Source: a virus (Duplodnaviria > Heunggongvirae > Uroviricota > Caudoviricetes). From it: a DNA stretch of 64,000 nt. The position numbers and the translations under genes are program-made. Positions within the stretch are counted from its first letter, which is position 1. Every line of letters starts with the position of its first letter. Positions 42,514 to 44,638 of this stretch are shown here, in pieces. Location: IMG/VR virus record IMGVR_UViG_3300032335_000499. One strand, given 5' to 3'. The notes below the pieces were generated by a model. That model was not told where the DNA came from. It did no database searches and saw nothing but the letters and a program-made list of their open reading frames with translations.

Positions 42514-43713
42514 ATGTCGGACAAGAAGTTACAGCACTGTTCCTTTTGTGGAAGCTCTAAAGATAAAGTAAAAAAGCTAATAGTAGGCGAAGACGTTGCC
42601 ATTTGTAGCGAATGCATAGAGTTATGCAACCAACTCATTGTAAACGAACACTTAACCGACAAAGTAAAAGAACATGACTCTGCTAACTTTGATGCGTATA
42701 GTATTAAAGATCACCTAGACAGATTAGTTATCGGACAAGATCAGGCTAAAATTGTATTAAGTGTTGCTATCAGTAATCACTATAAGCGTATCAATAACCC
42801 ACCTCAAGATTTAGAAATTCAAAAGGGTAATGTACTACTGATTGGTCCTACTGGATCCGGTAAAACCCTACTCGCTAAGTCAGTAGCCAAATATCTTAAC
42901 GTTCCCTTTGTTGTGGCAGATGCTACGAACTTGACAGAAGCCGGCTATGTCGGAGAAGACGTTGAAAGTATGGTTGGTATGCTACTTGCTCTTGCGGACA
43001 ATGATGTTAGTAAAGCAGAACGAGGAATCGTGTTTATCGATGAAATTGATAAGATTGCTCGTAAGAGCGAATCTACTAGCATTACTCGTGATGTGTCGGG
43101 TGAAGGGGTGCAGCAAGCATTGCTTAAGCTGGTAGAAGGAACCAAATGCAGAGTTAGTCCTGTAGGCAAGCGTAAGCATCCACAAGGTGAAACTGTAGAA
43201 GTCGATACCAAAAACATATTGTTTATTGCCGGCGGAGCTTTTGTCGGACTTGAATCAGTGATTAAGAGCAGAGTTCAAGGATCCACTATTGGATTCGGTG
43301 CTGAGGTAAAGAGCAAGGATGAGAAACAAGACTTGTCTGAGGTATCCCCTGATGATCTCACCCGTTTCGGGATGATTCCAGAATTCATCGGCCGTTTTAC
43401 GACAACCTGCACCCTAGAAGAATTGACACTAGAGCAGCTTATTAGCGTACTGACCGACATTAAGAATAGTTTTATCGAACAATACAAGTATTTGTTTAGC
43501 ATCGATGATATAGTATTAGAGTTTACTGAAGGTGCTATCAAAAAGATTGCACAAAACTGTATCGATCTAAAGACAGGCGCCCGCGGCCTACATACTGAAA
43601 TCGAAAGAATTTTGTTACCGCATATGTTTCATATTAGAAAGTACAGGGATAACAACATCGTCAAGGTAGTGATTGATGATGAATTAGTTGACAATCCTAA
43701 GGCACTTGTTTAA
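42514..43713 (+). CDS. clpX: ATP-dependent Clp protease ATPase subunit ClpX
   Basis: CSFCG...CSEC zinc domain, [32 protein letters not shown] loop and GARGL. Confidence 0.97.
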
Positions 43714-43748
43714 CCAAAATAGTAGCTTTTTTTGCGAAATTATAGTAG

Positions 43749-43818
43749 TATAAATAATGTTGTAGATGCTTTATAGGTCTACAACAATAGTCTTGCTTAT
43801 AAAGGAGATAAAAACATG
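43749..43818 (+). ncRNA. Late promoter plus ROSE-like RNA thermometer in the hsp20 leader
   Basis: TATAAATA 43749; 9-bp hairpin 43758-43786; GTCTTGCTT-ATA-AAGGAGAT 43790-43809 with UUGCU and a bulged G opposite the SD. Confidence 0.68.
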
Positions 43819-44271
43819 ACTAGAGAATTAACCCTACGTACCCTTGACATTCCGTCAATTCACAAGTTCGGTATCGGATTTGATAGCATTCTAGATGAGC
43901 TTATGCGAGTCAATGCACAACAGACAAATACCAACTATCCCCCATATAATATCGTAAAGCACAGCGAAGATGCATTCGCAATTGAACTTGCTGTGGCGGG
44001 GTTCCGAGAAGGTGATATCAACATCACGCTAGAAAAGAATGTTCTTACCATTAAAGGCCAACAAACAGAAAGCCTTGATGAGTTAGAAAAAGAAGTAGAG
44101 TATGTGCATCGCGGCATCAGTGCCCGCAACTTTGACCGCACTTTTACTCTTGCAGACTATGTTGAGGTACTTGGTGCAAAGGCTGAGAATGGTATTCTCA
44201 CAATTGAATTGGAGCGACAAGTTCCTGAGGAACAAAAGCCCAAAACGGTTGCAATTACATACAATAAATAA
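43816..44271 (+). CDS. Small heat-shock protein (Hsp20/IbpA-like)
   Basis: NYPPYNI, IELAVAGF, YVHRGISARNF and A..ENGIL.I.L. Confidence 0.95.
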   Translation: MTRELTLRTLDIPSIHKFGIGFDSILDELMRVNAQQTNTNYPPYNIVKHSEDAFAIELAVAGFREGDINITLEKNVLTIKGQQTESLDELEKEVEYVHRGISARNFDRTFTLADYVEVLGAKAENGILTIELERQVPEEQKPKTVAITYNK

Positions 44272-44285
44272 TATAATGATACATG

Positions 44286-44313
44286 TGCTTGCGGGTAATA
44301 GTGCCCGCAAGCA
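44286..44313 (+). terminator. 10-bp hairpin between hsp20 and clpS (terminator or leader hairpin)
   Basis: TGCTTGCGGG-N8-CCCGCAAGCA then TTCTT; TAAATA at 44265. Confidence 0.55.
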
Positions 44314-44332
44314 TTCTTAAAGGAAACTTAAA

Positions 44333-44638
44333 ATGGCAAATACCGAAATCCGAAGTAAGATCAAGCCCAATGCTGCACTTAAGGAGCCGCCTCTGTTCAA
44401 GATTATCTATCTGAACGACGACCGAACATCAATAGAGTTTGTGATTAACAGTCTATGTGAATATTTCAACTATAATCCTGACACTGCTACGCAAATTACA
44501 ATGGACATCCACGATAAGGGTAGTGCAGTAGTTGCTGTTCTTCCGTATGAGATTGCGGAGCAAAAGGGGATTGAAGTAACACTTGACGCACGTGCCCAAG
44601 GTTTCCCGTTGCAGGTTAAAGTAGAATCCGAAGTTTAA
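44333..44638 (+). CDS. clpS: N-degron adaptor ClpS
   Basis: PPLFKIIYLNDDRTSIEFV, IHDKG and FPLQV. Confidence 0.9.
   Translation: MANTEIRSKIKPNAALKEPPLFKIIYLNDDRTSIEFVINSLCEYFNYNPDTATQITMDIHDKGSAVVAVLPYEIAEQKGIEVTLDARAQGFPLQVKVESEV

Follow-up and report, generated by a model that had tools for sequence, protein, structure and literature searches.

Can a phage keep the RNA thermometer of a bacterial heat-shock gene while reading that gene from a promoter of its own? The question is raised by IMG/VR record IMGVR_UViG_3300032335_000499, a 64,000-nucleotide (nt) stretch of DNA from a virus of the Caudoviricetes, hereafter the window, in which hsp20, the gene of an IbpA-like small heat-shock protein (sHSP), is preceded by a segment (43749-43818) that a sequence-only reading had described as a late promoter followed by a ROSE-type thermometer. 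ROSE thermometers are familiar from bacteria, where they belong to the heat-shock response and act under sigma32. The features claimed for this segment are all found where that reading had placed them, and the element is, on comparative grounds, a conserved ROSE-like leader that shares ancestry with the leaders of bacterial ibpA genes. The cassette clpX-hsp20-clpS that contains it is carried by a freshwater lineage of Rak2-like jumbo phages. We consider it probable that the segment as a whole is the promoter and 5' leader of a phage ibpA-like gene, in which a ROSE-like leader, the putative thermosensor, stands behind a late-type promoter.

Anatomy and conservation of the hsp20 leader

The leader stops at the ATG (43816) of an open reading frame (ORF) that encodes an HSP20-domain, IbpA-like protein, which is the position in the 5' untranslated region (UTR) where thermometers of the ROSE_3 type are found. 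The 9-bp hairpin that had been predicted behind the promoter word is present: hairpin I is built on the repeat TGTTGTAGA (43758-66) and TCTACAACA (43778-86), inside which follow the pairs U43767.G43777 and C43769-G43776, a bulged G43768 and the loop UUUAUA; its conserved core comprises 43761-67 with 43777-83. After AAU comes AGUCUUGCUU-AUA-AAGGAGAU, spanning 43789-43809, and then AAAAAC and the start codon. Hairpin II is formed by GUCUUGCUU (43790-98), the loop AUA (43799-801) and AAGGAGAU (43802-09), which are joined by eight pairs (U43798-A43802, U43797-A43803, C43796-G43804, U43794.G43805, U43793-A43806, C43792-G43807, U43791-A43808 and G43790.U43809). Six of these are Watson-Crick pairs and two, U43794.G43805 and G43790.U43809, are G.U wobbles, so the earlier statement that this region pairs fully except for a bulged G is true if the wobbles are counted and false for Watson-Crick pairs alone.

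Within hairpin II the anti-Shine-Dalgarno segment CUUGCUU (43792-98) lies against the Shine-Dalgarno sequence (SD) AAGGAG (43802-07) with G43795 bulged, and the ROSE anti-SD motif is present as UUGCU (43793-97) facing AAGGA (43802-06). The core is flanked by C43792-G43807 and C43796-G43804, which are C-G in 92 and 96, respectively, of the 96 sequences compared below, and it is extended outward by U43791-A43808 and G43790.U43809. We also considered hairpin I as a transcription terminator and rejected this, as it has no U-tract and a terminator scan found none.

The comparison with relatives carries the case. An IMG/VR protein search gave 80 related viral loci (57-100% identity), and the leader is kept in 79 of the 80 contigs. 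Covariation was examined in the 57 distinct leaders and in an extended set of 96 sequences that adds bacterial and isolate-phage copies. Among the 57 leaders, compensatory changes occur at nine of the 11 pairs of hairpin I, with the same picture in the 96 sequences; the cells of this hairpin are paired in 94% of cases (94-97% across sets) as against 43-48% for slid partners, none of 500 shuffles reached its covariation, and RNAalifold recovers it. The SD helix is 96-97% paired in the two sets. The U, the bulged G, the C and the U of the motif, together with AGGAG, are invariant in all 96 sequences, which span sHSP identities down to about 35%, and the anti-SD motif occurs in just two forms, UCGCU and UUGCU, while the loop and the spacers differ in length. 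An unpaired base that never changes and yet weakens its helix would be expected in a tuned sensor or a specific contact, not in a mere stem.

The element extends beyond the viral contigs. Among 64 loci from genomes and metagenome-assembled genomes (MAGs), a covariance model built from the phage leaders, R1, detects it 5' of the sHSP gene in 49, and it is also present in the isolates Melnitz-3, S-RIM4, P-SSM4 and C48C1. In most relatives a separate GUCAU segment pairs with AUGAC and thereby puts the SD and the AUG into one long imperfect hairpin. In the window's clade this GUCAU segment is shortened, and the inner stem of hairpin I is reduced to the C-G pair and the loop.

The relatives also show variation around this common plan. 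The sole related viral locus that lacks the leader is L040 (around 3001), where the upstream region resembles GAA/GCT-rich coding sequence up to the ATG. Variants with three hairpins occur in L098 (1385-1500), L100 (1383-1500) and L151 (1276-1381), in which an inserted hairpin separates hairpin I from the CUUGCU hairpin, and the ATAAATA core is 87-99 nt 5' of the ATG. In L025 (2907-3003) a weak match to the Rfam freshwater-2 RNA (RF02980; 32.5 bits, with a cut-off of 49.9) overlaps the leader, and the common part is mainly the AAAGGAGAAAACAAAUG end.

A search with the Rfam ROSE families, which the sequence-only reading had proposed as a check, gave a divided answer. ROSE_3 (RF02523) aligns with all 69 of its positions to 43760-43821, and the score of this full-length alignment, 25.8 bits (E = 0.0063 in a 1-kb search), lies under the gathering score of 43. 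The relatives score 25.3-40.2 bits, always over the full model, and their hairpin I contains GAUGCCGA..UCGGGUC, the conserved core of the Rfam ROSE_3 consensus; for RF00435 and RF01832, no match to the leader was reported at E up to 10. The short thermometers of Pseudomonas ibpA are defined by a sigma32 promoter and two hairpins, in the second of which U(U/C)GCU pairs imperfectly with the SD and G-C pairs clamp the core (PMC3669281). The window leader agrees with this definition apart from the promoter, and the ROSE-type reading is supported by its architecture, motif and gene context as well as by the full-length ROSE_3 alignment. Taken from the window alone, where the 74-nt fold of the leader has z = -2.2 and the strict anti-SD/SD/start pattern occurs once against 0.33 times expected per 64 kb, the case would be weak; it is the comparison that is decisive.

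The promoter in front of the leader

Bacterial and phage copies of the leader differ in what stands before it. About 26 bacterial loci, mostly from Pelagibacterales (HIMB114, HIMB109, CODY6 and others), carry CTTGAAA-N13-16-CCCATAT before the stem of hairpin I; this is of the sigma32 consensus type and occupies the place of the ATAAATA-type word of the viral copies. In 78 of 79 viral loci, ATAAATA or a close variant (CTAAATA, TTAAATA, TATAAGTA or TATACATA) ends 57-69 nt before the ATG, and in MAG contigs of the phage type (A/T/C)TAAATA, or a word close to it, stands at the same distance. The sigma32 words are absent from the viral loci and from these phage-type MAG contigs, and the window has TATAAATA in place of CTTGAA..CCCCAT. 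Genes for the gp23 capsid protein number 2-9 in the MAGs with a phage-type promoter, whereas the isolate HIMB114 lacks them, and we therefore take the phage-type contigs to be phage DNA binned with bacteria. The idea that the heat-shock sigma promoter had been replaced thus finds its counterpart in the dichotomy between Pelagibacterales chromosomes and viral copies, and sequence comparison supports the view that a late-type promoter of the phage took the place of the sigma32 promoter of the bacterial versions.

The sHSP copies of the jumbo phages form a clade of their own (support 100/97) in a tree that is unrooted and whose sampling is biased by two peptide patterns. Naming a donor of the gene was considered and rejected on account of this unrooted, biased tree and of ROSE_3, which scores the phage leaders but not the SAR11 leaders. 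Among the bacterial MAGs, four (G007-G010, the records of L101, L090, L096 and L104) hold 2-9 genes each for the T4-type major capsid protein gp23, together with several hsp20 loci whose promoters are of the phage type, and one of the four, the Rhodobacteraceae Water_Bin34, has nine gp23 matches.

To which class does the phage promoter belong? The nearly invariant core is ATAAATA, 5-6 nt before the conserved stem, with variants such as TATAAGTA and GATAAATA in some relatives. In the window, ATAAATA stands upstream of 12 genes against 1.3 expected and is second among upstream 7-mers; 12 of its 16 sites, and eight of the ten sites of CTAAATA, lie upstream of genes, and the two words head the list beside GGTTGACAT. 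As the genes behind ATAAATA in the window are not structural, the late class was examined in the closest large relative (G004, 244 kb). There no other 7-mer is as enriched in the 100 nt before starts as ATAAATA, which precedes 46 genes against 3.6 expected, mostly at 14-30 nt before the ATG, and stands before genes for the baseplate wedge, the baseplate hub, a virion protein and a Clp-type ATPase. The same genome encodes a gp55-like sigma factor (35% identical to CBB_244, E 1e-50), a gp23-like capsid protein and a portal; within the 64-kb window, no gp55-like sigma was found. ATAAATA is the predicted late promoter of the Rak2-like phages CBB and GAP32 (PMC5259590). The enrichment, the virion genes and the sigma factor of this relative support the proposal of a late promoter, and late timing of the hsp20 promoter is probable.

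At T4 late promoters, transcription starts about 6 nt downstream of the octamer. Counted from the final A of TATAAATA, this rule would put the start at about 43762, on the first of the conserved pairs in hairpin I; the sigma32 -10 element in SAR11 is placed equivalently. If the rule holds, just five of the nine outer pairs of hairpin I would be part of the RNA. The outer 3-4 bp (43758-43761 with 43783-43786) precede the start given by the T4 rule, and yet in L009 one of these pairs is preserved through a compensatory change. Transcription may in fact begin a few nt earlier, or RNA that reads through from clpX may matter.

Two further observations concern promoter words in this lineage. The word GGTTGACAT is enriched upstream of starts in the window (GGTTGAC at 10 of 14 sites, TTGACAT at 10 of 25) and appears to mark a separate, early class of promoters of the sigma70 type beside the ATAAATA class. 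In G004, an ORF of about 6750 codons (34949-55207; L159-L160) follows the baseplate wedge gene, with ATAAATA 6 nt before its start.

Proposed temperature sensing and competing accounts

We expect the element to work as follows. Host RNA polymerase carrying a gp55-like late sigma factor of the phage would read the promoter and most likely start about 6 nt after TATAAATA, producing an mRNA that would begin with the stable hairpin I. In hairpin II, CUUGCU would pair imperfectly with the AGGAG of the SD, leaving one G bulged; the AUG would be paired with GUCAU in most relatives, and in the window copy a competing helix would lie over its G. While closed, this weak, AU-rich hairpin would limit binding of the 30S subunit; rising temperature would open it, as might titration of the sHSP itself, and synthesis of the chaperone would thereby be tuned after transcription.

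Several results tell against the thermosensor and against the assignment to ROSE. The minimum-free-energy fold pairs UAGUC (43788-92) with GACUA (43818-22) and leaves the SD in a loop, with the SD helix 1-3 kcal/mol above it; in the Turner model, the SD is no less open than with shuffled 5' parts, which occlude it at least as well; and at Rfam gathering thresholds (43 bits for RF02523) nothing was reported for 20 relatives. Codon 2 and the G of the AUG lie within the UAGUC/GACUA helix, and because C43792 is common to this helix and the SD helix, the two compete in the window copy. Temperature does enter the calculations: hairpin II is marginally stable, with a computed free energy of -6.2 kcal/mol at 15 C that weakens to -4.5 at 25 C and -2.5 at 37 C, and partition functions computed for 5-45 C give AGGAGA an open probability of 0.04 at 5 C, which climbs to 0.24 at 37 C. 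ROSE structures contain non-canonical pairs that energy models ignore. Since the openness of the SD rises with temperature but matches that of shuffled controls, the energy models neither support nor exclude thermosensing.

The alternatives to a late-transcribed thermosensor concern either the promoter or the RNA. The promoter might not be of the gp55 type; host sigma70 could read it through a -10-like TATAAT or TATAAA, or it could be a middle-type promoter that uses the T-run/GCG box near -30, and in either case hsp20 would be expressed early or in the middle of infection. We think this rather unlikely. In its favor, most relatives read TATAATAAATA, which contains the perfect sigma70 -10 hexamer TATAAT, and G004 and its sub-clade have TATAAGTA at this site; neither the full octamer TATAAATA (2 against 4.8 expected in the window) nor TAATAAATA is enriched in the window or in three near-complete relatives; and the genes behind ATAAATA in the window, as mentioned, are other than structural. 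The conserved box TTTTTTGCG, at fixed spacing, is present in 36 of the 57 unique upstream regions of hsp20 leaders, and no other ATAAATA site in the window or in G004 has it; T4 late promoters need no box of this T-run/GCG type. The compensatory change in L009, upstream of the T4-rule start, hints in addition at a start a few nt further upstream. What favors the late class nonetheless is that the invariant part of the site is ATAAATA and not TATAAT, that ATAAATA(C) dominates among the upstream words of the lineage and stands before structural genes, and that a gp55-like sigma is present in G004. Upstream of hsp20 on this strand, no sigma70 promoter with a -35 element at sigma70 spacing was found, and a search of four relatives, which was run without a positive control, gave no match to the MotA or AsiA families of T4 middle promoters.

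As for the RNA, the leader may be mainly an operator for self-repression of the IbpA kind, in which the sHSP binds its own 5' UTR and blocks translation until it is freed by aggregating proteins, such as over-produced virion proteins; output would then track folding load and not temperature. This account, which is compatible with thermosensing, seems to us possible but unlikely to describe the main function. Its precedent is the IbpA of gammaproteobacteria, which represses its own translation via a thermometer-type 5' UTR and needs R93 and an aromatic residue at Y34 (PMC10474464). Equivalents of Y34 and R93 are conserved in the phage sHSPs, including the window protein, and are invariant in alignment A2, and they differ in IbpB; moreover, the hairpin I sequence GAUGCC..GGGUC is kept beyond what a mere stem needs, and the additional copy of the leader that two relatives carry before groES-groEL would agree with an operator used in common. 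On the other hand, the arginine is widely conserved in alpha-crystallin domains and is hence weak evidence, K98 of IbpA is not conserved (T in the window protein), binding of the phage sHSP to the leader is putative, by analogy with IbpA, and an invariant bulged G in a weak helix is a hallmark of thermosensors. That putative thermosensor could also have been inherited as baggage, a 5' stabilizing hairpin and a constitutive damper of translation that came with the captured gene and has no temperature response in the phage. We regard this as improbable. The energy models do give no special occlusion of the SD in the window copy, whose clade has lost the inner stem of hairpin I and has a compressed GUCAU arm that makes the helices compete, and phage infections are, by our own reasoning, short relative to changes of environmental temperature. 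A plain damper, however, could be perfectly paired or lost, whereas purifying selection has been strong, with UGCU and the destabilizing bulged G invariant in sequences whose sHSPs are as little as about 35% identical, and compensatory changes maintain hairpin I. The remaining alternative, a chance resemblance with no functional RNA structure behind it, could appeal to the 0.33 occurrences of the strict pattern expected in the window and to the sub-threshold Rfam match, but with the leader conserved and covarying in 79 of 80 loci, and present on the same gene in bacteria and isolate phages, the comparison has in practice already refuted it.

The second ROSE-like leaders are found in L067 (794-869) and L080 (810-884), where ATAAATA, hairpin I, CUUGCUU or UUUGCUU, and AGGAG precede an ORF of 11-14 codons that is followed by phage groES and groEL (95 and 547 amino acids (aa), respectively, in L067). 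A more speculative extension, to which we give little weight, is that a phage proteostasis circuit would use the ROSE-like leader as its common operator, and not as a simple thermometer: the sHSP would bind its own mRNA and, in some relatives, that of the operon of the short ORF and groES-groEL, would be titrated by aggregating virion proteins late in infection, and would let synthesis follow the assembly load, with temperature as a second input.

The hsp20 locus and known systems

The table collects the features of the locus.

Table. Positions of the leader, its promoter and the neighboring genes in the window.
Feature	Position	Strand	Basis or remark
T-run + GCG box TTTTTTTGCG	43727..43736	+	12-13 nt 5' of promoter core, fixed spacing
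TATAAATA, late-type promoter core; conserved part ATAAATA, 43750-43756	43749..43756	+	nearly invariant in 57 leaders
Predicted transcription start, perhaps a few nt further upstream	43762	+	6 nt after last A of TATAAATA
Hairpin I; 9 outer bp in DNA	43758..43786	+	RNAalifold, covariation, ROSE_3 hairpin I alignment
Hairpin II, putative thermosensor	43790..43809	+	anti-SD/SD pairing, 96-97% paired in comparison
Alternative or outer helix, UAGUC (43788-92) with GACUA (43818-22)	43788..43822	+	minimum-free-energy fold
hsp20, IbpA-like sHSP gene, 151 aa	43816..44271	+	Pfam HSP20, E 5.6e-20, 71.8 bits
clpX, immediately 5' of hsp20	42514..43713	+	NCBIfam ClpX equivalog, 531.7 bits (cut-off 359)
clpS, immediately 3' of hsp20	44333..44638	+	Pfam ClpS, E 6e-24

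The best named family of the window sHSP is NCBIfam IbpA, with 118.6 bits, under the equivalog cut-off of 212, and the protein is 40% identical to IbpA of Salmonella. The order clpX-hsp20-clpS is widely kept, clpX being syntenic in 76 and clpS in 70 of the 80 related loci. The DNA polymerase of the window is 42-48% identical to those of the Rak2-like jumbo phages Atu_ph07, Phosso, XaC1, CBB, GAP32 and RaK2, and megablast matched the locus to none of 50,697 phage records. Downstream, an ATAAATA at 44264-70 overlaps the stop codon of hsp20, and an 11-bp GC-rich hairpin (44285-95 with 44304-14) with a weak T tail stands directly before clpS; it may act as a terminator or else be the hairpin at the 5' end of a clpS transcript, and Rfam gave only weak, chance-level matches at 44264-44314.

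Our literature search found no paper describing a ROSE-type leader on a phage hsp20 gene. The window adds a freshwater jumbo-phage lineage with its clpX-hsp20-clpS cassette, the contrast between sigma32 and ATAAATA, the compressed hairpin II, the upstream T-run/GCG box and a further leader that two relatives have before groES-groEL. In phages that range from T4-like cyanophages to the present jumbo-phage lineage, the RNA is kept under strong selection with the promoter exchanged, a natural experiment that separates the two layers of heat-shock control. This suggests that post-transcriptional tuning of chaperones, by temperature or by folding load, matters in virion assembly. The leaders also supply research and synthetic biology with short, AU-rich variants of the putative thermosensor from cold and temperate waters, and the annotation of phages with a recognizable regulatory element.

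The closest known system is the ROSE_3 thermometer of Pseudomonas ibpA (RF02523; Krajewski et al. 2013, PMC3669281), with which the window leader shares two hairpins, a length of about 60 nt and an ibpA-type gene. Both have a bulged G in hairpin I, with the GAUGCC..GGGUC core present in the relatives of the window leader, and both set U(U/C)GCU opposite the SD with a bulged G and with C-G pairs on both sides of the core. The differences are that the window leader is borne by a phage, that an ATAAATA late-type promoter replaces sigma32 and that hairpin II is far more AU-rich. The start codon is unpaired in Pseudomonas, paired in the phage relatives and partly paired in the window copy; in addition, the window's clade lacks the inner stem of hairpin I, and its leader scores 25.8 bits against a threshold of 43. 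The classical ROSE elements (ROSE1 of Bradyrhizobium, RF00435, and ROSE_2 of E. coli and Salmonella ibpA) have three to four hairpins and longer leaders and are driven by sigma32 or sigma70. They share with the phage leader the U(U/C)GCU anti-SD motif with its bulged G and the position upstream of small heat-shock genes, and they enclose the SD and the AUG in the last hairpin, as most of the phage relatives do.

Self-repression by IbpA (Miwa/Cheng/Taguchi; PMC10474464) resembles the phage case in having an IbpA-like protein with equivalents of R93 and Y34 and a thermometer-type leader, but is established for gammaproteobacterial IbpA only and putative for the phage. The promoter compares with the T4 late promoter TATAAATA and with ATAAATA of CBB and GAP32 (PMC5259590): the octamer occurs in the window, the heptamer is enriched, also before structural genes, a gp55-like sigma is present in the lineage and a -35 element is lacking. 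It departs from them in the leader of about 60 nt where 14-30 nt are usual, in the extra upstream box and in the variants found in relatives. A phage mRNA whose translation is set by a temperature-sensitive RNA structure is known from lambda cIII. The hsp20 leader, with its putative response to temperature, resembles cIII in being a phage mRNA of this kind; cIII, in contrast, relies on two alternative folds, is translated more at physiological than at high temperature, involves no chaperone gene and is not a ROSE element.

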